IMG/VR virus record: IMGVR_UViG_3300015209_000001
Coordinates: 1 to 46,533 of that record
DNA length: 46,533 nt
Direction: 5' to 3' (one strand)
Source: a virus
Each line of letters opens with the position of its first letter. Position 1 is the stretch's first letter. The notes below the pieces were generated by a model, which did no database searches, was not told the DNA's origin, and saw nothing but the letters and a program-made list of their open reading frames with translations. The position numbers and the translations under genes were made by a program. Of the stretch, positions 26,543-46,533 are shown piece after piece.

Positions 26543-26548
26543 GTGTCC

Positions 26549-28917: not shown

Positions 28918-29015
28918 CCCTGCTGATCATCCTCGCCCTGCTGGCGGTGATCTTCGTGCTGATGGTGGTGGACGTCAGGCGCATGGATGACGACGACGAG
29001 GAGGGGCGGCGGTGA
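28914..29015 (+). CDS. 33-aa single-TM protein
   Basis: ATGA overlap. MTLLIILALLAVIFVLMVV followed by an acidic tail. Confidence 0.35.
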   Translation: MTLLIILALLAVIFVLMVVDVRRMDDDDEEGRR

Positions 29016-29660: not shown

Positions 29661-29706
29661 GGCATTGAAGCTCGTGGCCTGTCGCAGATGGGGCTAGACT
29701 TTAGGT

Positions 29707-30883: not shown

Positions 30884-30947
30884 CCCGCGCTGCGGAGTTG
30901 ATGCGCCGGCGTGGACTGCAGCCGTGGAGCGTGCGGGAGAAGTGCCG

Positions 30948-31223
30948 GTGAGTGAGCCATCGGTCTTCGAGCAGGTGGTGGCCGAGGCCCTCGCACCTTT
31001 GGAGCCATTTCACCGAGATGGCAGAGTTATGCAAATCCGTATTGAGAAGCGCAGCAAGGCTGTTCTCCACGCCCTCGCCACCGACCCCCGGTGCTTGGAA
31101 GCCATGACGGCGGCGATGAACCACTATCGACCTTTAGACGGAATGGCGCAGGTGGCAAGCACGCCAGCCAACCTGGCTCGGCGTGCCCTCGCCGCCTTCG
31201 ACCCCGAGAAGGAGACACCGTGA
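30948..31223 (+). CDS. hypothetical protein (91 aa), paralog of 27342-27710
   Basis: GTGA overlap. VSEPSVFEQVVAEAL. Confidence 0.5.
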   Translation: MSEPSVFEQVVAEALAPLEPFHRDGRVMQIRIEKRSKAVLHALATDPRCLEAMTAAMNHYRPLDGMAQVASTPANLARRALAAFDPEKETP

Positions 31224-31330
31224 CCATCCCTGTGTTTACGACAACGTGCGAGCAATGCGGCACTCGTTTTCATGCTTCCTCTGCAGAGGAAAGGCTGTGT
31301 GCTGATTGCGAGAGGGAGGAGACACCGTGA
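31220..31330 (+). CDS. 36-aa zinc-ribbon peptide
   Basis: GTGA overlaps at both ends. CEQCG..CADC. Confidence 0.4.
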   Translation: MTIPVFTTTCEQCGTRFHASSAEERLCADCEREETP

Positions 31331-31449
31331 CCCACCACTACGTCTCCACCTACTGCATCCACGACCTCCACGATGCCTGCCGCCTCACCTGCAAGCACTG
31401 CAAGGCGCCGTGTCTTTGTCGGTGCCATGTGGAGAAGGAGACGGCGTGA
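31327..31449 (+). CDS. 40-aa Cys/His-rich peptide
   Basis: GTGA overlaps at both ends. HHYVSTYCIHDLHDACRLTCKHCKAPCLCRCH, a motif I recall from other actinophages. Confidence 0.45.
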   Translation: MTHHYVSTYCIHDLHDACRLTCKHCKAPCLCRCHVEKETA

Positions 31450-31718
31450 GCGACAACCCGCCGTGTTGCAACCCGGCTCATTGGTTCGCAGGCACAAACC
31501 AATCAAACGTGGACGACAGGCAGGCGAAAGGCCGCGGCGTTGCCGTGTGGGGGTTGCCGCTTCTGAACTCACGTAAGACCCATTGCAACCGAGGCCATGA
31601 GTTCACGCCGGAGAACACTCGCATTTACCAAGGCAACCAGAGACGCTGCAAAGCGTGCGAACCCATCAACTCTCGTGAGTGGTACCACAATAAGAAGGCC
31701 GAGAATGAAGGGAGGTAA
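31446..31718 (+). CDS. N-terminally truncated HNH-like protein (C-terminal two thirds only)
   Basis: DNPPCCNPAHWFAGTNQSNVDDRQAKGR and CNRGHEFTPENT..RRCKAC parallel the 17044-17625 HNH protein. The upstream His-containing part is missing. Confidence 0.55.
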   Translation: MSDNPPCCNPAHWFAGTNQSNVDDRQAKGRGVAVWGLPLLNSRKTHCNRGHEFTPENTRIYQGNQRRCKACEPINSREWYHNKKAENEGR

Positions 31719-32825
31719 GGGGGCGGGGCTAATACAGGCCAACGCAATCGCTCTGCCATTGGCAGACGCGAGCGTGGACTTGATAATCACCTCGCCCCCG
31801 TGAGGCCTTACTTCGCCCTTCGCTCCTACCGCGACGCTGGCGAGCACTACGACGCTCAGATCGGTAGCGAGCCAACGCCACAAGCGTTTCTGGAGGCCCT
31901 GTGGTCCGTCCTGAGCGAGTGCTGGCGCGTGCTGAAGCCGACCGGCTCATGCTGGGTCAATCTCGGGGACAAGCGCAGCGGGAGCGGCGGGCACAACAAC
32001 GCCGGCATCTCGTCCAAGTCCACCCTGAGCGGCAATGGACACGTCGGCGGCGTGGGCAAGGCGGGCCCGACGAAGATCAAGGCCACGCTTCGCAACGCCC
32101 CCGACCGCTACAACCAGGCCGCCTTCGGTCGCACCAAGTCGAAGATGCTGCTCCCGCACCGCTTCGCCATCGGGTGCGAGGACGGGTTGGCCGACCCCGA
32201 GGGCATCGGGTGGATCGTGCGGCAGGACGTGGTGTGGAGCAAGAGAAATTCGCTTCCAGAATCAGTGACCGACCGGACCCGGGATAGTCACGAGTTTTGG
32301 TTTCATCTGACCAAGCAGGGGCGGTACTTCTCGGCGGTGGACGAAATCCGCCAGCCATCGGTGCCTCAGAACGGCCTAGCCGGCACGTTCAAGCGGCCCA
32401 AGCCCAGCCACGACCTTGTGCCGGGGCAGGCTGCTACCCAGCAGCGAGCAGAGCGCAACGGGGACGACGCCTACCACCCGAAGGGCGCCCTCCCTGGCTC
32501 AGTCTGGACCGTCGCCTCCGAGCCCCTACGCATCCCCGACGCGGTGAAGGCGCACTACGACCTGCCCGACCACTTCGCCGCCTTCCCGCAGGAACTTCCA
32601 CGGCGCATCATCCTCGGCTGGTCGCCGTCTGGCATCTGTGTGGAGTGTGGTGAGGGCCGACGTCCGGTGGTGATCCGAGAGTTCCACGGTGAGTTCAACG
32701 AGCAGGAAGCAGGAAGGCAACGTGAACGAGGCGTGGTGAGCGGGGCCGTCGACAAGGTGACGCTCGGCAGGACGGACGACGTGGAACGCACTATCACCGG
32801 CTACGCCTGCGCCTGCCCCCCGTGC

Positions 32826-33341
32826 GGGGATTGTTCTAGGACGCTAAGATTGTCCTATGACAAAACCGTGTCTCCAGTGCGGGTCACAGATAACCCTCGA
32901 CCACCTAAAAGTGAAGTGGGAGTCGGATCGTCTACGGGCGCTCAAGAAGGCTCGGTTTTGCTGCAAGGCATGTTCGAGTCGCTGGAACGCGGCACACCGG
33001 GCGTCAACGACGTATCGCCGGCTGACGACTCGCGGATACGTGGAACTGTGGAAGCCGAGTCACCCGATGGCGAACAAGGGCGGGTACATCATGGAGCACC
33101 GCTACTTGATGGCGGAGCACCTAGGGCGGCTCCTGACCTCGGCCGAGGTCGTGCATCACAGGAACGAGATCAAGACGGACAACCGGCTAGAAAACCTCGA
33201 AGTCCTGCAAAAGAAGGACCACGACCGCCGGCCGAAGCCGCTGCCGAAGCCGTTTCAGTGCCCTCACTGTCAGGGCTGGTTACAGACGTTCGGGAGCCAC
33301 AGCCGTGTCCGCACTGTCGTCCCGCTCCCACCAGAGCCAGT
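32826..33341 (+). mobile_element. Insertion carrying an HNH homing endonuclease inside the methyltransferase gene (free-standing or intron-borne)
   Basis: A lower-GC junction (gattgttctaggacgctaagattgtcctatgac) follows the methyltransferase sequence GYACACPP. Native methyltransferase sequence resumes near ..[18 protein letters not shown]. Boundaries are approximate. Confidence 0.5.
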
Positions 33342-33345
33342 GTGA
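32857..33345 (+). CDS. HNH homing endonuclease (HNH_3-type) with an N-terminal zinc ribbon
   Basis: [63 protein letters not shown]. Paralog of 30488-30883. Its frame differs from the methyltransferase frame. Confidence 0.85.
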
Positions 33346-33573
33346 TTCTTGATCCCTTTTCTGGAACCGGCACCGTCCCCGGAGTCGCCCGCCAGCTCGG
33401 CCGATTCGGCGTCGGCATCGACCTGAGCTTCGACTACCTGCGCCTGGCCCGTTGGTTTTTGGATGACGGCCGTAGGTTCTCAAAAACCAGCACGAGAACC
33501 GACCGGGAGCGCCAGGGCGTGCTCCTGTGACCCTGCCCGCCGCCGCCTGCGCCGCACCGCGTAACACGGCCTC

Positions 33574-33589
33574 CTAAGCCCACTACCCT
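33574..33589 (+). promoter_or_regulatory. Degenerate motif copy CTAAGCCCACTACCCT (-10 TACCCT)
   Basis: Intergenic. GTG 33597 of the small terminase follows 7 nt after the -10 (leaderless arrangement). Confidence 0.45.
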
Positions 33590-35766: not shown

Positions 35767-35782
35767 CTAACTGCGCTAGGGT
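35767..35782 (+). promoter_or_regulatory. Motif copy CTAACTGCGCTAGGGT (-10 TAGGGT)
   Basis: Intergenic. ATG 35790 follows 7 nt after the -10 (leaderless). Confidence 0.55.
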
Positions 35783-36596: not shown

Positions 36597-37298
36597 CTAC
36601 CGCCCCCGCTTCAGGGTGGAGTCGCAGCGTGAGCAGTAGTCCCCGACGGGGGTTGGGTGGCGGCAGTCCTTTGGGTCGACGCGGTTGGCATCGCGCCGGT
36701 CCTTGGCGTTCGTCCCCGTCGGCCGAGTCAAGGGGACGACGCCTGCCCCCTTGCACGTTGGGCACGTGCGCTGGTCGTCGCGCGGCGGCTGAACAGACGC
36801 CACCGGGTGATGGTTGGGCGGTTGGTAACCCTCATCGGGGGCCGCTGGCGTTGGTTCATCCCTGGGCGCCGCCGCCTCCGGTGAGGAAGGAAGGGCAGGC
36901 GGCCGCTTGTCGCGCTGCGCGGTAAGCGGTGGTTCTCGCCCCCGGCGGGCTCGTTGAACTTCCGTCCGCTTTGACGGCGGGGCGAGGTGTTCCGCCCTCT
37001 CGGCAGCCGTTCGCCACCGGGTCAACGTCTTGTCCCCCACGCCGACCTCTCTGGCAATCCGGGCGAGTGCCGTCCCGTAGGCGCCGTCTGGAAGCCCCAC
37101 CCTCATTGACCAAAGATGAAGGCCCACCGCCCGCCGCATTTCAACCGTGCGAGCCTCGGCAAGAACGAGCAGGGGAGCCTTCTCGATCAGCCACGCCTCG
37201 CTCTGCTCCGGGGTGTAGGCGTCTAGGTCCTGAGCGGTGAGCGTCTTGACATCGGGGATGGAGAGTTGGATATCAGGAAGGCTCACGGCACCAGCCAT
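36597..37298 (-). CDS. HTH DNA-binding protein with a C-terminal CxxCxGxG / CxxC zinc module (233 aa)
   Basis: GAYGTALARIAREVGVGDKTLTRWRTAAE HTH. Pro/Arg-rich linker. TCPTCKGAG and CSRCDS. Visibly lower GC3 than neighbouring genes. Alternative GTG starts at 37304 and 37316. Confidence 0.6.
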   Translation of the reverse strand: MAGAVSLPDIQLSIPDVKTLTAQDLDAYTPEQSEAWLIEKAPLLVLAEARTVEMRRAVGLHLWSMRVGLPDGAYGTALARIAREVGVGDKTLTRWRTAAERAEHLAPPSKRTEVQRARRGREPPLTAQRDKRPPALPSSPEAAAPRDEPTPAAPDEGYQPPNHHPVASVQPPRDDQRTCPTCKGAGVVPLTRPTGTNAKDRRDANRVDPKDCRHPTPVGDYCSRCDSTLKRGR

Positions 37299-37606
37299 GT
37301 CCACTCGCCGTCCCACAGATGGGACCGCTTCGGCTGCCAGATGGATCGACCTCCCGACAGTGAGTCTCCATCGTGGAGCTTGTACAGAAGCCGACGAGCA
37401 ACCTCTTCGGGGTGGGCGAGGCTTTGGTCGAAGGTAACTTGAACGGTGACGGTCACCGTCCGGGGGTTCGGGGGTGCAACCTGACCTTCCTCAATCGCCT
37501 GAGCGCGGAACAGAACCCAGTCTGAGTCGTAGTCCTCCCTGCTCGGCTTCGGGTACGCCGCCTCGTAGATTCTGTCGCCTCGCTGGTTGATTACGCTGTC
37601 GCTCAT
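37283..37606 (-). CDS. hypothetical protein (107 aa), first gene of the reverse cassette
   Basis: AAGGAGG lies 6 nt upstream of ATG 37606. Its stop overlaps the downstream ATG region. No recognisable motif. Confidence 0.55.
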   Translation of the reverse strand: MSDSVINQRGDRIYEAAYPKPSREDYDSDWVLFRAQAIEEGQVAPPNPRTVTVTVQVTFDQSLAHPEEVARRLLYKLHDGDSLSGGRSIWQPKRSHLWDGEWTWLVP

Positions 37607-37636: not shown

Positions 37637-37665
37637 GCCTCCCGGCCCGCAACGGCGCGGGAGGC
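37637..37665 (-). promoter_or_regulatory. 8-bp GC hairpin (GCCTCCCG-N13-CGGGAGGC) in the leader of the reverse cassette
   Basis: Read directly. Lies between palindromic GCTAGC-centred -10-like boxes (TAGCCT on +, TAGCGT on -, about 37679-37689) and the RBS of 37606. Confidence 0.3.
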
Positions 37666-37816: not shown

Positions 37817-39436
37817 ATGGCCCTGTTCGGTCGCCGCGCTCCCCGCCGGTCCTCTCTGACCGCGGCAGCCATGGCCTATGACGCCTCGGTCCCTGCTCCT
37901 CGCATCTCCAAGCGGGGGTGGCAGGCCGACGTGTGGGACTACCGCAAGATGGTTCCCGAGCTGGGGTACTCGGCGCGCTTCGTGGCCAACGCCTTCCGGA
38001 GGATTCGCTTCGTGATCGCGCTGGAGGACGACGACGGCCAGCCCATGGCGGCGCGGGACGGGGACGGCATCGCGGTGTCTCCAATCGTGGAGGAGGCCCA
38101 GGTTGTCCTCCGCCAGTTCCGCTCGCCCATCGGCGGGCCCTCTGCGCTCTACGCCGGCCTGGCGGCCAAGCAGTGGGTGACCGGGGAAGCCTTCGCCGCG
38201 CCCAGCGAGCGGGACGGCCTGATCGTCGGCTACGACGCTCTCTCCACCTCCGAGATCGTCACCAAGGGGACGTGTCGCACCGAGGATGGGGAGTTCGCCG
38301 CCTTCGGACGGTTGCGCGGCCCCAACTCCCAGCCGGTGATGTATCCCTGCGGGACGGTGCCGATCCGGTTCTGGACGCCCGACGACGAGTACGGCGAGGA
38401 GCCCGACTCCTGCGTGCGGCCCTTGATCGAGCTGCTGGAGGTGATGGTGCTGCTCACCCGGGCCATGCGAGGAGCGGCGCTGTCCCGGCTCCACTCCGGC
38501 ATCATCCTCGTCCCCGACGAGCTGTCGTTCCCCCCCCTGCCCGACATCCCCGACGAGGACGCCTTCCAGGCTTTGCTGGTCGAGGCGTTCTCCGCCCCCA
38601 TCCAGGACAAGGCCGCCGCCGCCGCATTCACCCCCTTCGCCCTGACCGGGCCGGCGGATTTGATCGACAAGGTGCGACACCTGGACCTGTCCAAGGTCAC
38701 CGACGCCACGGTGCTGATGGCGCTGAGGATGCAAGCGACGACCCTGTTCGCACAGGGTGTGGATTTGCCTGTGGAAACTGTCACGGGCCATTCCAACACG
38801 ACCTACGCCAACGCCCTCCAGGTGTCGGCCGATGTCTACCAACAGCATTTGGAACCCCTGGCGCTGGGCATCGGAGACGGGGTGGCCTCCGCGTTCCTGC
38901 GCCCCCTGCTCGACGGACGGCCTGACGCTGAGCGGGTCCTGGTCATCCCCGAGCCCTCCGGGCTGGTCTCCCGCCCGGACAACTCCGCTGACGTGCTGGA
39001 GGCCTACAAGGTCGCGCCCACGGCCATCTCCAACGCCACCCTCATCGACGCCCTCGGCCTGCCCGAGAACCCCCCCTCGCCCGAGGAGCTTGACCAGCGC
39101 ATCTCGGTAGCCAACGCCATGGGATCGACCCAGCCGCCGAGCATGACCGCGGCGGTGGACGTGGCCGTGCAGCGAGCGGTATCCGCGGCGGGGGCACGGC
39201 TGCGCTCGCGGCTCAACGGCAAGCCCGAAGCCCTGACCCTCGCAGGCGTGCCCAACGACAAGGTGCCCGCCGCCCTGGGCCCGGCGAGAGTCGCCGCCCT
39301 GTCGGCGTCGGGCTCGCTGATCGCCGGGGAGTTCGCCGCCCTCGCTGAGGTGATCGGTCGCACGCACGGTCCCGAGGCGGCGCGCCAGGCGTGCGCGCAG
39401 GCCGAGGCCCGGGCCCTGGCCCTAATCGGCGGCTGA
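37817..39436 (+). CDS. portal protein
   Basis: 539 aa. First large + strand gene after the terminase and followed by a MuF-like gene. Size and position are typical. No motif checked. Confidence 0.75.
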   Translation: MALFGRRAPRRSSLTAAAMAYDASVPAPRISKRGWQADVWDYRKMVPELGYSARFVANAFRRIRFVIALEDDDGQPMAARDGDGIAVSPIVEEAQVVLRQFRSPIGGPSALYAGLAAKQWVTGEAFAAPSERDGLIVGYDALSTSEIVTKGTCRTEDGEFAAFGRLRGPNSQPVMYPCGTVPIRFWTPDDEYGEEPDSCVRPLIELLEVMVLLTRAMRGAALSRLHSGIILVPDELSFPPLPDIPDEDAFQALLVEAFSAPIQDKAAAAAFTPFALTGPADLIDKVRHLDLSKVTDATVLMALRMQATTLFAQGVDLPVETVTGHSNTTYANALQVSADVYQQHLEPLALGIGDGVASAFLRPLLDGRPDAERVLVIPEPSGLVSRPDNSADVLEAYKVAPTAISNATLIDALGLPENPPSPEELDQRISVANAMGSTQPPSMTAAVDVAVQRAVSAAGARLRSRLNGKPEALTLAGVPNDKVPAALGPARVAALSASGSLIAGEFAALAEVIGRTHGPEAARQACAQAEARALALIGG

Positions 39437-39437
39437 G

Positions 39438-39605
39438 ATGCGCATCGAGGAGCTGTTCACCTGCGACGACGCGTGCGTGTACTGCCGCGGGTGCGGGCAC
39501 GTCTGCGAGGCTCATCCCCTGGAGCCGTGGGGCGGAGTGGACGAGAGCGGCTGCCAGTGCGGGGCGCCGGGGATGCCGTGCCGACCTGATCGACGCAGGC
39601 TGTGA
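39438..39605 (+). CDS. 55-aa Cys-rich peptide
   Basis: ATG 1 nt after the portal stop. GTGA overlap with the next gene. CDDACVYCRGCGHVC..CQCG..C. Confidence 0.4.
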   Translation: MRIEELFTCDDACVYCRGCGHVCEAHPLEPWGGVDESGCQCGAPGMPCRPDRRRL

Positions 39606-40360
39606 TCCCCGCCCTCAACGGCAGGCGCACCATCGCCGCCTACCGGATGGCGCGGTGGGAGCTACGCCTTCGTCGAGCCCTGCGCGCCGCCATCAAGGTC
39701 CAACAGCACGCCCTGGAGGCCCGCCTGCGCTCCCGCACGGCCTCGGTGCCCCCCTGGGACGACGGCGAGTGGAACGACGACCTGGACGAGGTGGGGGATG
39801 TGGTGCGCTCCATCCTGAGCGAGGCCGCGGTGGTCGCTGTCCACAAGCTGGGCAAGGACGCCCTGGTCCTGTCCTCGGTGGAGGACGCCCTTCGCGCCCG
39901 CATCGCCCGCTTCTCCGATCAGGTGCGGGGCCTGTCGAGCCACCTCGTGCCCCGGCTGGAGAGCGAGCTGGCGACGGGGCTGGCTCACGGTGAGTCCGTG
40001 GACGCCCTCGTAGCGCGGGTGCAGGAGGTGTTCGTGCGGGTGGAGCACCAGCAGCGGACCTTGGTCAGGACGTGGGTGGTGGGTAGCTCCAACCAAGCCG
40101 CCTTCGAGGCCGGGGACGCCCTTGTTCAGGCAGGGGAGGATGCCCTGGATCGGGTGTGGCTGAGCGCCGGCAACGACGGAAGAACCCGGCCTGACCACGC
40201 TGAGGCTGACGGCCAGAGGGTCGGTCCTGGTGAACCCTTCATCGTGGGCGGCGAGGAGCTGATGTGGCCAGGAGACCCGGATGGCTCGCCGGAGCAGGTC
40301 ATGAATTGCCGGTGCGTCACGCTGAGCCTCGCCCCCGATGAGGAGATAGCGCCCGCCTAG
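39602..40360 (+). CDS. MuF-like / SPP1 gp7-like head morphogenesis protein
   Basis: WLSAGNDGRTRPDHAEADGQ...PGDPDGSPEQVMNCRCV is the Phage_Mu_F signature (..R..H...dG.......P.....NCRC). Confidence 0.75.
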   Translation: MIPALNGRRTIAAYRMARWELRLRRALRAAIKVQQHALEARLRSRTASVPPWDDGEWNDDLDEVGDVVRSILSEAAVVAVHKLGKDALVLSSVEDALRARIARFSDQVRGLSSHLVPRLESELATGLAHGESVDALVARVQEVFVRVEHQQRTLVRTWVVGSSNQAAFEAGDALVQAGEDALDRVWLSAGNDGRTRPDHAEADGQRVGPGEPFIVGGEELMWPGDPDGSPEQVMNCRCVTLSLAPDEEIAPA

Positions 40361-40405
40361 GACGGCACACCCTACCTGCGCCGTGTCACGCGTACGATTC
40401 CGCGC

Positions 40406-41851
40406 ATGCCGCGCCGCGCCCGCTTCTTCATCCAGCCCTGCGAGTGCGGAGGAACGTGTGGGGGCTGCGACGAGGAGACGGTAACCGCCGCCATCGAGGG
40501 AACGACCGCCGCGGTTGGTGATCCGCCAGCTGACGGCCCCCTGCCGGAGCGGTGGCACGCCGTGGTCCTGCTCGAAGGGCTGAGGACCGGCGACCACCGC
40601 GCCATCCGGCCGATGGCCCTGGAGTTCCGTGACCTCCCCCTGCCCCTGTGGGCCCAGGCACGCAACTCCTCCCACTTCGACGCCCCGTTGGTTGGCTCGA
40701 TCGAGACGCTGGAGCGGGTGGAGTGGGACGCGGTGCCGGGAGTGCAGCTCATCATGGGCACCGGGACCTTCGACCTCGGAGGGACCGAGGGCCAGGAAGC
40801 GGCTCGTCTCGTGCGCGACCAAGTGCTTCGGTGGGGATCGGCCGACATCGACGTGTTCGCCTCCGAGGTCATGGGCACGCCACCGTGGGCCGAGGACGGG
40901 CTCGACATCATCCTTGGCGGAGCTGACGTGGAGGACTGGTGGGAGGAGATCACCTCCGGGCGGGTGGCCGGCTTCACCCTGCACCCCCACCCCGCCTTCC
41001 AGCAGTGCGTCGTGGCCCCCGACTCCGTGGAGTTGGAGATCCCCGCCCCCATCGAGACCGAGGGCGCCACTCTTCCGGGCCTCATCGCCGCCTCCACCCC
41101 TGCCGAGCCCCCCTCTGGGTGGTTCGCTGACCCGTCCCTCGACGCTCCCACGCCCCTTCGTGTCGGAGACGACGGGCGGGTGTGGGGCCACATCGCCACG
41201 TGGAGAACCTGTCACACCGGCCTCCTACGCTCCGGCTGCACGCGCCCCCCGCGCTCCAGCCTCAACTACGAGCCCTTCCACTCCGGCGGCTTCGTCCAGA
41301 CCGACTCCGGAGCCGTGCGGGTGGGGCACCTGACGATGGACGGCGGACATGCGGAGCTGCCCTTCGACGCCCGGAGGACGCGGCGCCACTACGACGACTC
41401 GACCACGGTCTGGGCCAACGTGCGCGCCGGTGAGGACGCCCTCGGCATCTGGGTAGCAGGAGCGGTTGCGCCGGGGATCACCACCGAGCAGATCATGCGT
41501 GCCCGCTCCCTGGCCGTGTCAGGCGACTGGAGGGCGTGGCCCGGCGCCGGCCTGGAACTGATCGCCGCGCTGTCGGTTCCCGTACCGGGATTCCCGGTAT
41601 CGATGGCCGCAGGGGCCGAGCAGATGGTGGAAGTGCGCCCGCGGGCCCGGCTGGTGGACGACGAGCCCATGGCCCTGGTGGCCGCGGGGATGCTCGCCCC
41701 TGCCCGGCACGAGGGACTGACGGCGGCGGCGGTGCAGGCCATCGTGGACCGCTCGGTGGCTGACCTCCGGGCTTCGTTGCTGGTCCTTGACCCCCTCGTC
41801 ACCGCGTCGCTGGTGGCCGAGATGGACACCCTGGTCGCCGCATCGCCGTGA
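40406..41851 (+). CDS. capsid maturation protease (actinophage type)
   Basis: DGRVWGHIATWRTCHTG..C..PP.S...Y..FH.G...T..G...VGHLT..GGHA...........HYDDSTTVWA.VRAGEDALGIWVAGAV.PG......RA..LAVSGDWR matches the family as I recall it. TACGAT box lies 7 nt before the ATG. Confidence 0.6.
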   Translation: MPRRARFFIQPCECGGTCGGCDEETVTAAIEGTTAAVGDPPADGPLPERWHAVVLLEGLRTGDHRAIRPMALEFRDLPLPLWAQARNSSHFDAPLVGSIETLERVEWDAVPGVQLIMGTGTFDLGGTEGQEAARLVRDQVLRWGSADIDVFASEVMGTPPWAEDGLDIILGGADVEDWWEEITSGRVAGFTLHPHPAFQQCVVAPDSVELEIPAPIETEGATLPGLIAASTPAEPPSGWFADPSLDAPTPLRVGDDGRVWGHIATWRTCHTGLLRSGCTRPPRSSLNYEPFHSGGFVQTDSGAVRVGHLTMDGGHAELPFDARRTRRHYDDSTTVWANVRAGEDALGIWVAGAVAPGITTEQIMRARSLAVSGDWRAWPGAGLELIAALSVPVPGFPVSMAAGAEQMVEVRPRARLVDDEPMALVAAGMLAPARHEGLTAAAVQAIVDRSVADLRASLLVLDPLVTASLVAEMDTLVAASP

Positions 41852-42063
41852 GCGACCACGGCACGCGCACGAGCTACACCCACGGGGGCTGTCGCGAGGC
41901 GTGCTGCCAGAAGCCCAACGCCGAGTACGTGGCCTCCTACCGGGCCAAGACCCGCCGCCAGTCCTCGGTCAAGCCCGCCCCCTCCGCCGCTCCGCGGGGG
42001 GAGCGGATGACGCCGTGGGAGCAGCAGCTACGGCGAGCGGCGGCTGAGTCAGCCGACTGGTAG
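41848..42063 (+). CDS. hypothetical protein (71 aa) with an HGTRTSYTHGGCREACC motif
   Basis: GTGA overlap. Its 3' end overlaps the convergent gene 42049-42303 by 15 nt. Confidence 0.45.
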   Translation: MSDHGTRTSYTHGGCREACCQKPNAEYVASYRAKTRRQSSVKPAPSAAPRGERMTPWEQQLRRAAAESADW

Positions 42064-42303
42064 CCGAGCGGGGCGAACCTCGGTGGTGCTCACCGTGAGG
42101 CCCCACCCGCAGGGCAGGCAGAACACCGAGTGCGTCTCCGTCGTCGCTCCGTACCCGCCGTGTCGGAACAGCGCCGGCTGGTCCATCGTCACCTCGTGCA
42201 GCGCACCGCCGCACATCGGGCACGCGCTGCGGTCGATGGGCACCAGTGCCCGGCTCCCTGCCCAGCGGACCTTGGGGGCCACGTCGATGAGGCGAGCGGG
42301 CAT
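42049..42303 (-). CDS. zinc-ribbon protein (84 aa), last gene of the reverse-strand island
   Basis: CPMCGG..CLPCGWG. Very high GC3. ATG lies 6 nt after a minus-strand motif copy. Confidence 0.6.
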   Translation of the reverse strand: MPARLIDVAPKVRWAGSRALVPIDRSACPMCGGALHEVTMDQPALFRHGGYGATTETHSVFCLPCGWGLTVSTTEVRPARLPVG

Positions 42304-42309
42304 GGACGG

Positions 42310-42325
42310 AAGGTAGGGCGGTTAG
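42310..42325 (-). promoter_or_regulatory. Minus-strand motif copy CTAACCGCCCTACCTT (-10 TACCTT)
   Basis: Reverse complement of aaggtagggcggttag. ATG 42303 follows after 6 nt (leaderless). Confidence 0.5.
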
Positions 42326-42331
42326 TTGCCC

Positions 42332-42622
42332 TCATCGGCCGTGGTGTACGGCCGTCCACAAAGACTGGATGGCTTCGCCCGCTGTCGGAGCGTGCCTGTT
42401 GATCCCGTTGGGGAACCCGTCGTAGATGTTGAACGGCGGGTTGCTCTCCTCAGGCAGGGCCAGAAGCCCGCTTGCCAGCCCTTGTCCCGATGCGCCGTCG
42501 CGGTCGAGCAGTGCGGCCCCGGCCATCCATCCGCCATCGGGCCACGGCCAAACGGCTACGACCACGGCATAGTCGGGCAGCCCAACCATGCGTTCCACGA
42601 GAGCCCAATCCGGGGGGGTCAT
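42332..42622 (-). CDS. hypothetical protein (96 aa)
   Basis: ATG 42622 overlaps the upstream stop (TGATG). Product MTPPDWALVERMVGLPDYAVV...ESNPPFNIYDGFPNG. Replaces the 154-aa ORF-track model (see rejected list). Confidence 0.55.
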   Translation of the reverse strand: MTPPDWALVERMVGLPDYAVVVAVWPWPDGGWMAGAALLDRDGASGQGLASGLLALPEESNPPFNIYDGFPNGINRHAPTAGEAIQSLWTAVHHGR

Positions 42623-42948
42623 CACTCGTTCGACCACTCGGTCGACAGGAACCGGATGGGCCCACGCTGTGCCGTAAACGTCGGCAGGTCCATCCTCGGA
42701 GCGCAGCCCTCGTGGAACCACACCCCGTCGCCCATGGCGAACGGGTTCAGCCACCCGGGCGTGACCCAAGGCGGTTTCCGGAGCGGCAGGTGGCATCCCG
42801 ATAGCTGCGGTGGGACCCGACGACGCTTGCCAGCGAACCGCCCTGAGCTGTGCACGACCGCCACCGTCGGCGGCCCGCCGCAGAGCGCGGCCGGATCGGG
42901 CTCGGAGAACTTAGTGATCGGAAAGCAGAGACCCCGACTGACGGTCAC
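42622..42948 (-). CDS. hypothetical protein (108 aa)
   Basis: GTG 42948 overlaps the upstream stop (GTGA). By hand count, about 50 of 57 codons end in G/C in this frame versus 34 of 58 in the competing frame across 42622-42796. Confidence 0.5.
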   Translation of the reverse strand: MTVSRGLCFPITKFSEPDPAALCGGPPTVAVVHSSGRFAGKRRRVPPQLSGCHLPLRKPPWVTPGWLNPFAMGDGVWFHEGCAPRMDLPTFTAQRGPIRFLSTEWSNE

Positions 42949-43097
42949 GTCCGACCTTGGGTGGGATGCCGGTCGCCGCACGCGACGTAGTCGAGCTGGC
43001 CGTCCCAATGCTGGCCGTAGTCGGGCCAGATCAGGCTCTCAGGCCAGGCACTCAGGCCAGGCGGTAGCACGGTAGCCCCCACGATCCTGGCGTTCAC
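42945..43097 (-). CDS. hypothetical protein (50 aa)
   Basis: GTGA overlaps at both ends. GC3 is high by hand count. Contains DNA direct repeats. Confidence 0.35.
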   Translation of the reverse strand: MNARIVGATVLPPGLSAWPESLIWPDYGQHWDGQLDYVACGDRHPTQGRT

Positions 43098-43105
43098 GAT
43101 CCTGG
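43038..43105. repeat. Short direct repeats: CTCAGGCCAGGC x2 (43038-43049, 43051-43062; 13-nt period) and CACGATCCTGG x2 (43080-43090, 43095-43105; 15-nt period)
   Basis: Read directly on the + strand. The 13-nt period is not a multiple of three, so this is a DNA-level rather than a protein-level repeat. Confidence 0.7.
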
Positions 43106-43225
43106 GTATCTCGCCATCGCCCGACCATGCGACCGGCTCGGGCCGACCCAGCGGACCTTGCCGTCGCTGCGAGTGGTGCGCACGAAGAAAGTGGGCTTGC
43201 GGGTGGTGGTCTGTGTCGTCGTCAT
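43094..43225 (-). CDS. hypothetical protein (43 aa), leaderless first gene of the reverse operon
   Basis: ATG 43225 lies 6 nt after a minus-strand TAGGGT -10. Product MTTTQTTTRKPTFFVRTTRSDGKVRW... GC3 is very high for the first ~32 codons. Confidence 0.4.
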   Translation of the reverse strand: MTTTQTTTRKPTFFVRTTRSDGKVRWVGPSRSHGRAMARYPGS

Positions 43226-43231
43226 GACCCC

Positions 43232-43260
43232 ACCCTAACCGCGCTATGATCAGGAGTCAA
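43232..43260 (-). promoter_or_regulatory. Minus-strand promoter TTGACT-N17-TAGGGT driving the reverse operon
   Basis: -35 is the complement of 43255-43260 and -10 is the complement of 43232-43237. Then 6 nt to ATG 43225. Confidence 0.6.
43235..43250 (+). promoter_or_regulatory. Motif copy CTAACCGCGCTATGAT (-10 TATGAT) facing the capsid genes, overlapping the minus-strand promoter
   Basis: Same 16-nt motif as the other copies. The next + strand gene starts at 43492. Confidence 0.5.
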
Positions 43261-43491
43261 GAGGTTCGAGGTGGCGCTCGCTGGAAGCACGGCATGACTT
43301 GGCTTCGTTGACGACCTGCGTGGCCCGGTTCTACATCGACGACCTGATGGATACTCTGCGCTCGGTGCCGAGGTAGAAAAATCGCCCGACCTTGTGTTAC
43401 GGCCACACTGAGAGGGCCGACTCGACCTCGTTGAGCGGATGTCACGGGACCTCGTCCCAGCCCCGCCCCTGCGATTCCAAGAGGTAGCCCC

Positions 43492-45198
43492 GTGGACAAC
43501 ATCGAGATCCCCGCCCTTCCCGAGAACCTGGCCGAGCTGAGCGATGAGGACATCGCCGAGCTGGCCGCACAGATCGCCGCCACCTTCGGCGAGGTGCGCG
43601 AGGCCGATCCCTCCCCCGAGCGGACCGCAGCCATGCGGACCCTGGTGGAGTCCGCACGCACGATCACCACCGCGCAGGGCGAGAGGGCCGAGGCATCGCG
43701 CCTGATGGCCGAGGAAGCCGCCACCCTGGAAGCGGAGATGGCCGCCCTGAGCGACACCGGCACCCCCGACGAGCCCGAGGGCGAGCCGGAGCCCGAAGCC
43801 ACCCCCGAGCCCGTGGAGGTCACCACGACCGTCCCCGTGGCCCCTGCCCAGACGGCGAGCGCACGGGTGCCTGCCGTGGCACGAAGGGTGCCGGCCAACC
43901 GCCAGCCCCGCGCCGTGCCCTCCGGGCCGCGGGTGTCGATCACCGCGGGAGCAGACGTGCCCGGGTTCGGGATCGGCCAGCGCCTCGCCGGCATGGACGA
44001 GATCGTGACGGCCATGGTGGCGCGCTCCGAGCAGCTCGGCAGTGCCTCCCGGGGCGTGGACGAGAAGGTGGTCGTCGCCTCGATCCACCTGGACATCCCC
44101 TCCGAGCGGATGCTGTCGCCCATGCACTCCGAGCGGGCCAACTCCCGCATGGTGCGCGACGCCATCGATCGCACCAACATGCGCGACGTCAACGCCCTGA
44201 CCGCCGCGGGTGGTCTGTGCGCCCCCGTGGGGACGTTCTACGACCAGCTCAACGTCGGCAACACCGGCGAGCCCGTGGGCGATGCACTCCCCGGCTTCGG
44301 GGCTGAGCGCGGCGGTATCCGCTTCGTGCCCGGTCCGGCCCTGTCCTCGATCACCGGCAGCGTGGCGACCCTCACCGCGGCGATCGACCTGGCCGGCGGC
44401 GCCCCGGCCGTCAAGACCTGCCTCAACGTGGCCTGCGATGCCATCGTGGAGGTGGACACCGTGGCCATCTACTCCTGCCTGGAGTTCAACAACTGGGGCG
44501 CCCTCACGTTCCCCGAGCGGGTGGAGGCCCAGACGCAGCTTGCGCTGGTTCAGGCCGCCCGCGTGTCCGAGCAGGTGCGCCTCGACGGCATCGCCGCCGG
44601 GTCGCTGGCTGTCAACCGCACCTCGCCGCTCGGATCGGTGCGGGAGTTCACCGCGGCGCTGGCTTCGGCCGCTGCCGGCATCCGCTCGCGCAACCGCCTC
44701 GCGCCCGACTACGTGCTCGACCTCTACGCCCCGTCGTGGACCCCGGCCCTGTTCGACGCCGACTGGGCCGCGGGACAGTTCCTCAACCCCTCCGACGCTC
44801 CCTCCGCGGGAGAGATCGCCGCTGACCTCGCCGGCCTCGGCATCCGGGTGACGTGGTACTTCGACTCCAAGACCGCCGGCTCCCAGGTCTTCGCGGCGCA
44901 GAGCGCGGGCGTGCTCAACGCCTTCCCGACCAACTGCCTGATGTACCTGCACGTCCCCGGCACCTTCGTCGGCCTCCAGGGCGCCACGCTCAACATCGGC
45001 CTCATCCGGGACTCGGCGCTGACCATGGGCTCGGGCACCTCTCCCGGCAACCGCTACCGGGTGTTCACCGAGACGTGGGCGAATGTCGCCAAGGTCTCGA
45101 ACCTGGAAGCCCTCGAAATCTCCATCCCCTCCTGCCCGACCGGCACGACCGGCGCACCTTCGGCCACCGCCCTTACCTGCGCCACCGTTCAGGCGTAG
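43492..45198 (+). CDS. major capsid protein candidate with an N-terminal scaffold/delta-like domain (568 aa)
   Basis: AAGAGG RBS, GTG start. N-terminal ~150 aa are helical and acidic with a Pro/Glu linker (scaffold-like). The remainder has ..TAAGGLCAPV..ERGGIRF..IGLIRDSALT..NRYRVFTETW, which I recall from actinophage capsid proteins. Confidence 0.65.
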   Translation: MDNIEIPALPENLAELSDEDIAELAAQIAATFGEVREADPSPERTAAMRTLVESARTITTAQGERAEASRLMAEEAATLEAEMAALSDTGTPDEPEGEPEPEATPEPVEVTTTVPVAPAQTASARVPAVARRVPANRQPRAVPSGPRVSITAGADVPGFGIGQRLAGMDEIVTAMVARSEQLGSASRGVDEKVVVASIHLDIPSERMLSPMHSERANSRMVRDAIDRTNMRDVNALTAAGGLCAPVGTFYDQLNVGNTGEPVGDALPGFGAERGGIRFVPGPALSSITGSVATLTAAIDLAGGAPAVKTCLNVACDAIVEVDTVAIYSCLEFNNWGALTFPERVEAQTQLALVQAARVSEQVRLDGIAAGSLAVNRTSPLGSVREFTAALASAAAGIRSRNRLAPDYVLDLYAPSWTPALFDADWAAGQFLNPSDAPSAGEIAADLAGLGIRVTWYFDSKTAGSQVFAAQSAGVLNAFPTNCLMYLHVPGTFVGLQGATLNIGLIRDSALTMGSGTSPGNRYRVFTETWANVAKVSNLEALEISIPSCPTGTTGAPSATALTCATVQA

Positions 45199-45201
45199 TC
45201 G

Positions 45202-46098
45202 GTGGAGCAGTCCACGCTCGCCCGGGTTCCTCACTCCGCCGATTGGTCGGAGTGGGTGGCCCGGGACGCGGCACTTGTCGCAGGGGTGGGGCCGGAGTCC
45301 GTCATCGACGGCCCGCCCCAGTTCGCCCAGCCCTTCGGGCTCATCGCCTCGGCCACCACGGTCGACCACGGCGACCACGAGTGGATGGGCGGGATGCGCC
45401 TCACCCCGGAGTCCTGCCAGGGGATCGACATGTGGGCGCCGTGCTCCTCCTCCCAACTCACCAGCGGCCGCAACCGCGCCGCCATCTACTCCTACGACCC
45501 GTTTGTGGGCATGGTGCGCGACGAGTGCGGGACCTGGGGGTGGGAGGCCCAGGACTACGAGGGCCGCGCCCGTCGTCGCTTGGCCGCCATCGAGTCCTTC
45601 GGCGTAGAGGCGGAGTTCTGGACCGGCACGCTGACCGCGGCCAACCCGCATCTTGCAGCAGCAACAGCGACGACCCTCGGCACCGGCCTCGGCCTGGCCC
45701 GGGGTCTGGCCCTTCTCGTTCAGGGCCTCGCTACCAACCTCGTCGGACGGGGCATGATCCACGCCCGGCCCTACCTCGTGGAGTTGTGGCAGGCCGGAGG
45801 ACACCTCATGGAGCGCCAGGGCAGGCTCACCACCATCGGAGGCCACGTGGTGGTCCCCGGAGGGGGATACACCGGCTCCTCGCCTGCGGGAGTGGCTCCT
45901 GCGGGGACCCTGGAGTACGCCTACGCCACGGACTGGATCATCGTCGACCGCTCCCCCGTGCAGGTCTTCGAGGGCGACATGGGCGAGGCGACCGACGAGT
46001 CGAACAACATCGTCGCCTTCCGTGCCCAGCGTGGCTACGGCATCCGCTGGAACCGCTGCGCGCACCTCGCCGCCCAGATCGACACGGCCGTAGCGTGA
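45202..46098 (+). CDS. second capsid-fold (HK97/encapsulin-like) protein candidate (298 aa)
   Basis: AAIESFGVEAEFWTG...GMIHARPYLVELW...GRLTTIGGHVVVPGGGY...NNIVAFRAQRGYGIRW parallels the A/P-domain pattern of HK97-fold proteins. Assigned by pattern only. Confidence 0.45.
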   Translation: MEQSTLARVPHSADWSEWVARDAALVAGVGPESVIDGPPQFAQPFGLIASATTVDHGDHEWMGGMRLTPESCQGIDMWAPCSSSQLTSGRNRAAIYSYDPFVGMVRDECGTWGWEAQDYEGRARRRLAAIESFGVEAEFWTGTLTAANPHLAAATATTLGTGLGLARGLALLVQGLATNLVGRGMIHARPYLVELWQAGGHLMERQGRLTTIGGHVVVPGGGYTGSSPAGVAPAGTLEYAYATDWIIVDRSPVQVFEGDMGEATDESNNIVAFRAQRGYGIRWNRCAHLAAQIDTAVA

Positions 46099-46120
46099 CC
46101 CCCGACAGTAGGAGCTTCTC

Positions 46121-46533
46121 GTGGCAAACCTGACCGGCCCTGTCTCCATCCGGGGCATCGTGGCCCGCTTCGCACGTCTCGACGCCGCCGGGCTGACGCC
46201 TGCGGGAGCGACCAACGGCTACATCATCAAGTTCGTGCAGTTGGTCCTCACCCCGGAGTACCGCGAGGGGGAGGACTTCGAGGTCAAGCTGGCCGACGGG
46301 TCCCGCTGCGTCGACGCACAGGAGCACGCCGTACCCCGAAGGGTGGGCCTGGAGCTCCAGGTGTGCAACCCCGACGCCGAGCTTCACGAGCTGCTGGCCG
46401 GCTACACCCTGTCCACCGTCTCCACCGATACTGTCGGCGCCGCCTTCCCCGCGGTGGGAGTCGACCCCACCCCCAACGGCGTGAGCATCGAGGCGTGGTC
46501 GAAGCGTTCCAACAGCGACCTCTCCGCTCCCTC
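46121..46533 (+). CDS. 5' part of the wrap-around structural gene (continues at 100 / equivalently 1-346)
   Basis: GTG 46121 with GGAG 7 nt upstream. The frame stays open to the window end and runs in frame into 1-346. Confidence 0.6.
   Translation, partial: MANLTGPVSIRGIVARFARLDAAGLTPAGATNGYIIKFVQLVLTPEYREGEDFEVKLADGSRCVDAQEHAVPRRVGLELQVCNPDAELHELLAGYTLSTVSTDTVGAAFPAVGVDPTPNGVSIEAWSKRSNSDLSAP
46435..46533. repeat. Terminal direct repeat, identical to 1-99
   Basis: Read directly. 99/99 identity. Confidence 0.95.

Follow-up and report, generated by a model that had tools for sequence, protein, structure and literature searches.

In the immI region of phage P22, a strong promoter, Pant, overlaps a weak divergent one, Pmnt. 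Occupancy of the strong promoter suppresses the weak one, and repressing the strong promoter indirectly activates the weak. Mnt is the known regulator there, acting at a known operator, and the controlled genes are themselves regulators. In Escherichia coli, bidirectional promoters are short stretches of shared DNA from which RNA polymerase can depart either way to give divergent transcripts, and a polymerase bound in one orientation sterically blocks the other (PMC12825309). Their -10 elements are pseudo-symmetric and overlapping or adjacent, with starts 18 (also 10 or 23) bp apart, and competition is significant only when one side is strong, for example through a good -35 element (PMC12825309).

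Among the actinobacteriophages, BPs carries the divergent promoters P_R and P_rep in one short intergenic region, with a protein-binding site between the -35 and -10 elements and related sites elsewhere in the genome. BPs integrates, and this region is a true lysis-lysogeny switch: the repressor gene is expressed from one of the promoters, and the operator is palindromic over 12 bp (PMC4557955). The SigA-like promoters of Cluster O mycobacteriophages are predictions; they include a divergent pair, PL1/PR2, expected to give leaderless mRNAs, and PL2, which is leaderless too and serves a leftward gene lying within a rightward structural operon (PMC4351075). The stoperators of Cluster A phages are short, asymmetric, repeated motifs whose orientation follows transcription. 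More than 20 are found in short intergenic gaps, independent of promoters, and they stop elongation when bound by a known immunity repressor (PMC9283540). In Actinobacteria, the SigA -10 element is TANNNT, about 6-7 nt before the start, and a -35 element is neither conserved nor obligatory; TANNNT without a -35, leaderless starts, and leaders of more than 200 nt are all normal there (PMC6448022).

The locus described here lies at 43223-43260 of the window, which is the whole 46,533-nucleotide stretch of IMG/VR record IMGVR_UViG_3300015209_000001 that was analyzed, from a metagenomic, high-GC, actinobacterial phage. Judged by its letters, the locus really is an overlapping promoter-like pair between a minus-strand accessory operon and the major capsid gene. 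The reading preferred here, at a probability of roughly 60%, is a compact, overlapping, divergent promoter pair used by the host SigA-type RNA polymerase, with mutually exclusive occupancy. Its elements are as follows.

43255 to 43260, minus strand: -35 element TTGACT of P_rev, the leftward promoter; 5/6 to TTGACA, 17-bp spacer
43232 to 43237, minus strand: -10 element TAGGGT of P_rev; fits TANNNT, 6 nt from the ATG
43235 to 43250, plus strand: distal P_mcp, the putative rightward capsid promoter; core CTAACCGCGC and -10 element TATGAT, predicted start at about 43256-43258
43238 to 43245, no strand: quasi-palindrome ACCGCGCT (reverse complement AGCGCGGT, 6/8), read from the sequence

The initial annotation had placed on the minus strand TTGACT (complement of 43255-43260), 17 nt, TAGGGT (complement of 43232-43237), 6 nt, and an ATG whose A is at 43225, and these coordinates are exact. 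Its plus-strand core CTAACCGCGC at 43235-43244 and TATGAT at 43245-43250 are also where it put them. The geometry bears out its further point that the P_rev -10 lies inside the distal P_mcp spacer and vice versa, and from known footprints it can soundly be inferred that two polymerases would thus be unable to bind together. The gap between the two -10 boxes is 7 bp, the quasi-palindrome fills the space between them and abuts both, and the core shares 3 bp with the P_rev -10. The predicted starts are about 31-33 bp apart, so the polymerase footprints should coincide, or nearly so. Face-to-face promoters are convergent, and the pair had been described as face-to-face; it is divergent (back-to-back). 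Because the plus start is predicted farther right, at about 43256-43258, than the minus start at 43225, the transcripts should not overlap.

The E. coli class offers a likeness in its short shared DNA, its divergent transcripts, and its steric block, which is predicted here, and P_rev fits the kind of strong side, with a good -35, at which competition is significant (PMC12825309). The locus departs from that class in its spacing, with -10 boxes 7 bp apart and predicted starts about 31-33 bp apart, and in its symmetry, which does not extend past the 8 bp of GC core that separate the boxes. Here, too, one side would be leaderless, unlike in that class, and the host is actinobacterial. In one relative, L009, the equivalent elements (TAGGAT / TACCAT) may fit the 23-bp bidirectional class.

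The claim that P_rev is a near-consensus leaderless promoter is supported by its sequence and by relatives in which position and design are conserved. It has the actinobacterial -10, TANNNT, and a -35 near TTGACA at 16-19 bp, which is optional in Actinobacteria (PMC6448022) and is found in the relative L007 as well. With 6 nt before the ATG, there is no room for a Shine-Dalgarno leader, so its mRNA would be leaderless. Across both strands of the whole genome, TTGAC-N16-19-TANNNT occurs three times against 0.7 expected. P_rev is one of the three, and all share the design TTGACT-17/18-TAnGGT-6 nt-ATGAC(C/G)AC. The other two are on the plus strand.

7032 to 7070, plus strand: paralogous consensus leaderless promoter TTGACT-18-[CTAACCGCGC]TATGGT-6-ATG; heads the tail operon
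26514 to 26551, plus strand: paralogous consensus leaderless promoter TTGACT-17-[CTAACCGCGC]TATGGT-6-ATG; closest match to the P_rev cassette of L007

A P_rev-like leaderless geometry is also seen at 7068, 26549, 33597, 35790, 42303, and 17625. In L007 (JALYDQ010000035.1, compared over 17.6 kb of its 49,265 bp; capsid protein 67% identical), a reverse block is headed by TTGACT-17-TACAAT-6-ATG. In L009, whose capsid protein is 32% identical, TAGGAT-6-ATG keeps the 6-nt distance. The L007 cassette resembles the plus-strand cassettes of the window even in its spacer, with ctcta-CCTAACCGGGG in L007 against ctctga-CCTAACCGCGC in the window. The P_rev of L007 itself contains the core, on the minus strand, with ACCGGGGT at the same 1-nt offset from the -10 as ACCGCGCT has in the window. 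This is the single core homologue in the 17.6 kb compared, and no plus-strand match to the motif is found in L007. At the equivalent position, the plus strand of L007 reads TTAGGT / TAGGTA, without a TANNNT, and so the promoter overlap itself is not conserved.

A built-in consensus sigma-70 scan of 38000-46533 found no promoter. This negative is discounted because its -10 rule is E. coli-centered: it requires at least 4/6 matches to TATAAT, and TAGGGT scores 3/6, whereas the actinobacterial SigA -10 is TANNNT and the -35 is not conserved (PMC6448022). Megablast and blastn searches of the region and the promoter cassette against sequenced phages gave no match, nor did a scan of the single capsid protein against viral_contigs and genome_contigs. 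The exact 16-mer was found in viral_contigs as five single-copy matches on unrelated contigs, which were put down to chance. With a gapped -35/core/-10 pattern, 12 matches came up, each single copy, in phages of 31-66% GC; these were set aside, about 20 chance matches being the rough estimate.

P_rev would head a reverse operon of five coupled small ORFs, running from 43225 to 42049 between the protease and capsid genes.

43094 to 43225, minus strand: ORF-A (43 aa, MTTTQTTT...); ATG 43225 is the predicted leaderless start of both transcription and translation
42945 to 43097, minus strand: ORF-B (50 aa); a GTGA overlap couples it to ORF-A
42622 to 42948, minus strand: ORF-C (108 aa), an ORFan; stop/start overlap with ORF-B
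42332 to 42622, minus strand: ORF-D (96 aa); its ATG overlaps the TGA stop of ORF-C (ATGA, 4 nt shared)
42049 to 42303, minus strand: ORF-E (84 aa), with a zinc-ribbon-like CxxC...CxxC; last gene of the operon
42310 to 42325, minus strand: internal motif-type promoter CTAACCGCCC-TACCTT; 6 nt before the ORF-E ATG at 42303
40406 to 41851, plus strand: capsid maturation protease / virion structural gene, matching phrog_859 and phrog_18402; left flank of the reverse block

Neither ORF-A nor ORF-B is called by the gene caller. ORF-A has a GC3 of 0.80, and its frame matches the local GC3 phase; its codon-position GC is odd (GC1 0.48, GC2 0.70). Its start, ATGAC(C/G)AC, is common to the two other consensus leaderless promoters. 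ORF-C has no homolog but itself among 5.8 billion proteins. Unrelated phages carry two forward-oriented homologs of ORF-E, 54-58% identical to it; identifications of ORF-E as Lar-like or DUF7129 were dropped, the matches being far under the cut-off. Against Pfam and PHROGs, ORFs A to E have no significant family match and no helix-turn-helix (HTH) or other DNA-binding signature.

The position of this block had been called unusual, which is overstated. Two relatives (L007, L009) use the same slot between protease and capsid genes for a reverse block, and PL2 of Cluster O is a parallel, as a leaderless promoter for a leftward gene within a rightward structural operon (PMC4351075). The Cluster O promoters differ in lying in an AT-rich gap, in not being described as interleaved, and in having no invariant 10-bp core fused to the -10 (PMC4351075). 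For 65 high-GC loci, a heuristic survey of the minus-strand ORFs preceding the capsid gene was rejected: antisense frames pass its GC3 filter, and it wrongly flagged L170, L172, and L173, in which only plus-strand genes are called.

The rightward element belongs to a phage-wide module, in which a 10-bp core, CTAAsyGCGC, is fused to TAnnnT. There are ten genomic copies, 8 exact and 2 near. The 16-mer at 43235-43250 has 6 matches at three mismatches or fewer, all on the plus strand, against 0.13 expected; for the degenerate form CTAASYGCGCTANNNT, exact matches number 8, all plus, and those at two mismatches or fewer number 11, against 0.91 expected. Besides the promoters already listed, the copies are as follows.

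18679 to 18694, plus strand: motif copy, then a 27-nt Shine-Dalgarno leader to a Gam-like gene
20074 to 20089, plus strand: motif copy, then a 35-nt Shine-Dalgarno leader to an Erf-like gene
25903 to 25918, plus strand: motif copy; downstream start codon ambiguous
28498 to 28513, plus strand: motif copy, then a 20-nt Shine-Dalgarno leader to a MerR-like gene
33574 to 33589, plus strand: degenerate copy (2 mismatches), 7 nt before GTG 33597, the start of the gene preceding the large terminase
35767 to 35782, plus strand: motif copy, 7 nt before ATG 35790

All ten copies have TANNNT, the core-to-(-10) spacing is 0 nt in every one, and the motif points in the direction of the downstream gene in 10/10, including the sole minus-strand copy (42310-42325), which faces a minus-strand gene. 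A start codon follows at 6-7 nt in five copies, and three others have short Shine-Dalgarno leaders. Most other copies lack a -35 yet sit exactly at gene starts. The motif heads both early (Gam, Erf) and late (terminase, capsid, tail) operons and so marks no single temporal class. Orientation with transcription is also a property of the Cluster A stoperators, which are likewise short, asymmetric, and repeated. The copies here differ from these in number, in being fused to a -10 without exception, and in being placed, in half of the cases, for leaderless starts; neither promoter-independent sites nor a cognate repressor was found.

The ten copies, their co-orientation, and their placement at start codons thus support, at the level of sequence, the claim that the plus-strand motif forms a promoter module directed toward the capsid gene. 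Distal P_mcp has the TANNNT -10 (TATGAT, 43245-43250) and matches the copy at 7040 (family D17) with 95% identity across 20 nt. It has no -35 near TTGACA, the candidates at 16-18 bp being CATGAC, TCATGA (17 nt upstream of the -10), and GTCATG; a -35 is not obligatory for actinobacterial promoters (PMC6448022). It is atypical in that the next real start codon is 241 nt away, against 6-52 nt for the other copies. The antisense TAGGGT is built into the extended motif ACCCTAACC, which recurs at 7046 and 20074, so part of the promoter overlap comes "for free." Taken together, both promoter elements are, on their sequence, present, not due to chance, and members of promoter families; P_rev is conserved in relatives, and the capsid leader, by comparison among them, forms structure as plus-strand RNA.

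This leader and the gene behind it contain the following features.

43256 to 43491, plus strand: predicted 5' leader of the capsid mRNA, about 235 nt, if the distal start is used
43405 to 43410, plus strand: candidate proximal -10 CACACT (fits ANNNT), 11 nt before hairpin 1
43421 to 43435, plus strand: leader hairpin 1, CTCGAC-CTC-GTTGAG
43446 to 43458, plus strand: leader hairpin 2, GGGAC-CTC-GTCCC
43492 to 45198, plus strand: major capsid protein gene (568 aa); phrog_777 major head protein, E = 7.9e-72

The capsid protein is less than 40% identical to that of any deposited phage. No ORF of at least 40 aa with high GC3 was found between the distal start and GTG 43492, and a scan of 38000-46533 found no terminator-like site. 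Nothing in L007 or elsewhere corresponds to segment 43261-43387, and the conserved leader begins only at about 43388. The tandem hairpins covary as plus-strand RNA when compared as fixed-length units anchored on CCTCG: 94% of cells are paired, the score is 0.754 against 0.173 for shuffled sequence, and G-U pairs occur in the plus sense only, which speaks for rightward transcription downstream of the locus. A MAFFT alignment of the whole leader was discarded, hairpin 2 being out of register in it. The whole 245-nt leader folds no more stably than shuffles (z = 0.37), and the hairpins are absent from Rfam. Relatives without any reverse block still have the same leader. The hairpins may be the more original lead.

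The mechanism we infer covers start sites, steric exclusion, relative promoter strengths, and any regulation of their balance. P_rev would fire leftward, starting on the A of ATG 43225, and its leaderless mRNA would cover the five accessory ORFs down to 42049. Distal P_mcp would start at about 43256-43258, and its transcript would carry the leader with its two conserved hairpins ahead of the capsid gene. The upstream contacts of each promoter would fall on the start site of the other, and one polymerase would exclude the other. P_rev is probably the intrinsically stronger of the two, and heavy occupancy of it should then hold back the distal capsid promoter.

The initial annotation had gone further and called this the architecture of a genetic switch. 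A regulated switch at 43223-43260 is not supported. In lysis-lysogeny switches such as lambda PR/PRM and BPs PR/Prep, a promoter drives the repressor, whereas the reverse promoter here leads to ORFs A to E, which have no DNA-binding signature. Family scans of about 50 proteins, among them some of the small ORFs, found no integrase or equivalent, no CI-type or immunity repressor, and no phage RNA polymerase or sigma factor; a promoter class read by a phage polymerase or phage sigma was accordingly rejected. An 814-aa ORF matches tail and structural PHROGs. The likeness to BPs lies in the divergent promoters, in a core that is a candidate protein-binding site, and in related sites elsewhere in the genome; the core here is asymmetric, unlike the BPs operator (PMC4557955). 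No regulator gene adjoins the locus. P22 immI differs in having Mnt and in controlling regulators, where the genes on either side here are cargo ORFs and capsid. Two genes elsewhere in the window encode transcription-factor-like proteins, which could be speculated to read the motif.

27910 to 28245, plus strand: WhiB-family transcription factor gene; PF02467, 37.9 bits, and WhiB-like PHROGs
28534 to 28917, plus strand: MerR-family HTH protein gene; PF13411, 32 bits against a cut-off of 21.6; directly behind the motif copy at 28498

The most serious challenge to a competing pair is that P_rev alone works, the plus copy being weak or silent, with the capsid gene transcribed from a proximal promoter at 43405-43410 and/or by read-through from the portal-protease genes, and without consequential competition. 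This is fairly unlikely. The plus copy lacks a -35 and is the only motif copy far from a start codon; L007 has kept the capsid leader without a plus-strand TANNNT at the homologous spot; the leader is kept in relatives that lack the reverse block; and overlapping E. coli promoters of ordinary strength show no measurable competition (PMC12825309). The window, L007, L109, and L084 each have an ANNNT hexamer 9-12 nt ahead of hairpin 1: CACACT aligns with CATACT in L007, and TACACT (L109) and TACTGT (L084) stand in the others. These hexamers are weak, though (CACACT, CATACT), and not clearly conserved in L009, L170, and L172; CACACT is a low-confidence candidate picked by sequence pattern. Read-through is made possible by the lack of a terminator-like site in 38000-46533, but it would have to traverse 1.2 kb of opposing operon. 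A perfect core with close identity to the 7040 copy is hard to explain as functionless, and the missing -35 loses force when most copies lack one and still sit exactly at gene starts. That the hexamers are a functionless chance juxtaposition in GC-rich DNA is barely credible: TANNNT-type hexamers are individually common and the generic consensus scan reports no promoter here, but the full -35/17/-10 pattern is found 3 times against 0.7, each with the ATG at exactly 6 nt, P_rev is conserved in L007, and the 16-mer motif has 6-11 matches against 0.13-0.91.

The RNA polymerase does not normally read the region from -22 to -13 sequence-specifically. The 10-bp block there is invariant although the -35 regions are unrelated, which favors a toggle operated by a factor: a phage regulator, with the MerR-like or WhiB-like protein as candidate, would bind the core and govern all ten module promoters. 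At this locus, it would cover the P_rev -10 (which overlaps the core by 3 bp) and spacer, 43232-43254, and act on the capsid promoter to flip from accessory to capsid expression; were it a repressor, both promoters would be silenced together. The encoding of two candidate factors, one directly behind a motif copy, is in favor, as are the precedents of BPs, whose operator separates the -35 from the -10 of P_R in a divergent region (PMC4557955), and of Cluster A repressors that bind asymmetric sites oriented with transcription (PMC9283540). Still, such a toggle is improbable. The fixed 0-nt spacing is more readily explained by a composite promoter element than by an operator standing on its own, early and late genes carry the motif alike, no integrase or immunity repressor was found, and L007 has one homologous core in 17.6 kb. 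MerR-activated promoters have spacers of 19-20 bp, longer than the 17-18 bp here, and the core is no dyad operator (6/8 over 8 bp). More improbable again is a two-layer control of the capsid, in which a factor-read CTAACCGCGC toggle orients the host polymerase and the hairpins tune translation of the same mRNA. The toggle may then time the cargo operon, possibly one for host takeover or anti-defense, against capsid production, and the hairpin loops may mimic the 16S rRNA anti-Shine-Dalgarno and pair with the capsid ribosome-binding site. If true, this would be a control not described for actinobacteriophages.

Nothing about the proposed divergent pair upsets what is currently understood; what it offers is a well-defined test case. 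If both promoters fire, it would be a clean natural case outside E. coli in which interleaved promoters vie for one polymerase site, and the transcript of one of them would be leaderless. The locus illustrates, too, how a cargo operon can be lodged between essential head genes without breaking capsid expression. Beyond it, the ten-copy module is a ready transcription map for an uncultured actinophage lineage and a compact promoter part for high-GC hosts.

The G+C content of the window is 69%, and sequence self-comparison shows its first 99 nt (1-99) to be identical to its last 99 nt (46435-46533), so the assembly closes into a circle and the genome measures 46,434 bp; the structural operon crosses the window ends. 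By frame-specific GC3 and family searches, the phage is a siphovirus-like actinobacteriophage whose genes lie almost all on the plus strand. Nucleotide searches with the DNA found no match and no close sequenced relative, and the capsid protein is less than 40% identical to that of any deposited phage. The gene order is as follows:

33597, plus strand: small gene, first in order, before the large terminase
ends 35761: large terminase
37817: portal
39602: MuF-like
40406-41851: capsid protease
43492-45198: major capsid protein, then a head-tail adaptor
8014: tape measure
16251: lysin-like peptidase
18722: Gam-like
20125: Erf-like
22633: replication initiator
23752: DnaB-like helicase
27910: WhiB-like
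28534: MerR-like
31800: methyltransferase

A GAF domain match (PF01590, 26.6 bits; cut-off 22.4), unusual in a phage structural module, lies in the tail-gene-region protein 14607-15161. Between the lysis-region and early genes, the minus strand carries an HNH_3 homing-endonuclease gene (17044-17625) with a leaderless-type start (TATATT-6 nt-GTG); two more HNH genes are at 25221 and 29707. The stretch 29000-33500, with 61-66% GC against 69% for the window and a weak GC3 signal, holds an HNH gene, two possible minus-strand ORFs (30026-30820) and a 576-aa DNA methyltransferase, and may be recently acquired DNA.

The promoter elements between the protease and capsid genes, and two near-match copies of the plus-strand module, are the following:

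43260-43255 TTGACT, 17 nt, 43237-43232 TAGGGT, 6 nt, ATG 43225, minus strand: P_rev, the predicted leaderless promoter of a reverse operon (read from sequence)
43235-43244 core CTAACCGCGC, 43245-43250 -10 TATGAT, plus strand: distal P_mcp, facing the capsid gene (read from sequence)
42325-42310, minus strand: near-match module copy CTAACCGCCC-TACCTT, 6 nt upstream of the ORF-E ATG
33574, plus strand: near-match module copy, 7 nt upstream of GTG 33597

The elements on both strands had been located in the initial annotation, and every coordinate proved correct on re-reading. A generic promoter scan, with a threshold of at least 4/6 matches to TATAAT, found no promoter at this site. In actinobacteria, the SigA -10 hexamer follows TANNNT and the -35 is not conserved (PMC6448022). 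On both strands of the window, TTGAC-N16-19-TANNNT occurs at only 3 sites (7032 and 26514, plus; 43260, minus) against 0.7 expected, and all three read TTGACT-17/18-TAnGGT-6 nt-ATGAC(C/G)AC. They form one consensus-promoter family positioned for leaderless mRNAs, whose encoded proteins start MTTT. By every available sequence test, P_rev is real. The genes after the leaderless promoters at 7068, 26549, 35790 and 43225 (minus) start ATGAC(C/G)AC(C/G), giving MTT(T/H) N-termini; the common ATGAC(C/G)AC may be a sequence preference of leaderless initiation or a duplicated promoter plus 5' cassette.

Closest to the window is L007, a contig of 49 kb from an NCBI metagenome assembly, whose capsid protein is 67% identical. 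Three minus-strand genes separate its protease and capsid genes; the first is preceded by TTGACT-17-TACAAT-6-ATG, and this cassette matches the window's plus-strand cassettes, spacer included (TTGACT-ctcta-CCTAACCGGGG-T-TACAAT versus TTGACT-ctctga-CCTAACCGCGC-TATGGT). L009 (32% identical) likewise has three minus-strand genes there, headed by TAGGAT-6-ATG.

The plus-strand motif is a promoter module. Its degenerate form, CTAASYGCGCTANNNT, matches exactly at 8 sites, each of them on the plus strand; with up to 2 mismatches allowed, the count is 11, where 0.91 is expected. All ten credible copies point the same way as the gene that follows, and in each the 10-bp core directly adjoins a TANNNT hexamer. 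The start codon is 6-7 nt away in five copies, three have 20-35 nt leaders containing a Shine-Dalgarno sequence, and only two have a -35. The 43235 copy, with a perfect core match and 95% identity over 20 nt to the 7040 copy, is the outlier of the family: no real start codon follows it until the capsid GTG, 241 nt downstream.

The two promoters had been described as face-to-face. The minus start at 43225 lies left of the predicted plus start (~43256-43258), so they are divergent, back-to-back. Seven bp separate the -10 boxes, and the 6/8 quasi-palindrome ACCGCGCT (43238-43245) in between directly adjoins the plus -10; its offset from the minus -10 is 1 nt, as also seen in the L007 P_rev (ACCGGGGT-TACAAT). 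The predicted plus start coincides with the P_rev -35, and the minus start codon with the upstream region of the plus promoter. From the known reach of polymerase on promoter DNA, occupancy of both promoters at once would be implausible. In L007, the core points toward the reverse operon, and no TANNNT exists at that place on the plus strand (TTAGGT / TAGGTA), so the overlap is specific to the window. The extended motif ACCCTAACC also carries an antisense TAGGGT at 7046 and 20074, which means that part of the overlap comes free; only at 43235 is it accompanied by a TTGACT (17 bp) and an ATG (6 nt). At L009 7834-7859, the minus -10 TAGGAT (complement of 7843-7848) and a plus-strand TACCAT (7847-7852) overlap by 2 nt, predicting divergent starts ~23 bp apart, a spacing typical of E. 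coli bidirectional promoters.

The favored reading, at a probability of about 0.6, is a pair of host-polymerase promoters, interleaved so that each would sterically exclude the other: a strong leaderless promoter and a copy of the module that has no -35. In E. coli, such exclusion matters only if one side is strongly occupied, as after improvement of its -35 (PMC12825309); P_rev fits that side and should therefore depress the distal capsid promoter. The arrangement would work in the same way as bacterial bidirectional or overlapping divergent promoters, although it falls outside the 18/10/23-bp definition of the E. coli bidirectional class. Similar promoters, leaderless and either divergent or intra-structural, are predicted in Cluster O mycobacteriophages (PMC4351075). 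With BPs (PMC4557955) the arrangement shares a divergent control region and a site between -35 and -10, and with Cluster A stoperators (PMC9283540) an asymmetric motif whose orientation follows transcription, but it lacks the defining features of either.

That the core is invariant, at -22 to -13, points to recognition by a protein, which may shift the balance between the two promoters; the phage encodes two candidates, the WhiB-like and MerR-like proteins. Several features speak against both a simple switch from early to late and a MerR-type mechanism: the fixed core-to-(-10) spacing, the 17-18 bp spacers, the lack of dyad symmetry in the core and the presence of the module at the head of early (Gam, Erf, MerR-like) as well as late (pre-terminase, post-terminase, capsid, tail) operons. 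Support for a lysis-lysogeny switch is lacking. Family searches of about 50 proteins of the window turned up neither an integrase nor a CI-type repressor, and likewise no sigma factor and no RNA polymerase.

Of the elements nearby, the conserved pair of hairpins in the capsid leader is the most original:

43421-43435 and 43446-43458, plus strand: leader hairpins 1 and 2, invariant top AC-CUC-GU, arms covarying freely
L007 9930-9967; L009 7916-7962; L109 435-472; L170 (L170/171) 3916-3960; L172 3915-3961; L173 2894-2937: tandem pairs upstream of the capsid gene in relatives

The hairpins lie 30-54 nt upstream of the capsid start in the window and 30-70 nt across 9 distinct phages, some without any reverse block and some of lower GC. 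In L084/L118 one unit is clean and the other imperfect; in L092 a single unit precedes the end of the contig. Over 17 units, 94% of cells pair (64% shuffled, 27-46% slid), 4/6 pairs show double-sided changes, the covariation score is 0.754 versus 0.173, and G-U pairs occur in the plus sense only. In 1.33 Mb, 16 of 21 sense-strand ACCTCGT hairpins fall within ~80 nt upstream of a capsid start. They have no Rfam match; their ACCUC (loop plus closing pairs) is complementary to GAGGU in the ribosome-binding site for the capsid protein and similar to the 3' end of 16S rRNA. The plus-sense evidence shows that DNA right of 43223-43260 is transcribed rightward as a structured leader.

A proximal capsid promoter just upstream of hairpin 1 is a serious alternative to the distal one, because the leader conserved with L007 starts only at ~43388 and several phages carry an ANNNT hexamer 9-12 nt upstream of hairpin 1 (window CACACT 43405-43410, L007 CATACT, L109 TACACT, L084 TACTGT). 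The preceding ~125 nt (43261-43387) have no L007 counterpart and no similarity to any sequence fetched. One frame there has GC3 ~0.9, with a potential 22-25 aa peptide (TTG 43299 or 43308 to TAG 43376, LASLTTCVARFYIDDLMDTLRSVPR), and the end of the segment carries a CTCGG-tg-CCGAG hairpin followed by an A-run.

GC3 phase changes and stop/start overlaps split the reverse block into five coupled ORFs:

43225-43094, minus strand: ORF-A, 43 aa
43097-42945, minus strand: ORF-B, 50 aa, GTGA overlap with ORF-A
42948-42622, minus strand: ORF-C, 108 aa
42622-42332, minus strand: ORF-D, 96 aa
42303-42049, minus strand: ORF-E, 84 aa, zinc-ribbon-like

After the protease gene, a 71-aa Cys-rich protein (HGT..Y..GCRE.CC...EY..YR; 41848-42063) overlaps ORF-E tail-to-tail by 15 nt and weakly matches the C-terminus of an HNH-endonuclease PHROG. 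L007 has two copies of its coding motif (8565-8662 and 8821-8918; 76% identical over 98 nt), one on either side of the reverse-block start. A second reverse block, of two genes (36597-37606, minus strand), separates the post-terminase genes from the portal gene. The first of the two is not leaderless but has a Shine-Dalgarno leader (AAGGAGG), with a strong hairpin, GCCTCCCG...CGGGAGGC (37637-37665), immediately upstream; the block's 239-aa protein weakly matches a transposase-type HTH.

Family searches gave no significant match for any of ORF-A to ORF-E, and 5.8 billion proteins held no ORF-C homolog. ORF-E has two homologs; both come from unrelated phages, where they are oriented forward in a group of small early genes. 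Compared with one another, the proteins encoded by the reverse blocks of the window, L007 and L009 show no homology, and in L170-L174, L109 and L084 the capsid gene directly follows the protease or another plus-strand gene, which marks the block as mosaic cargo, occupying a recurrent slot, rather than as a conserved regulatory module.
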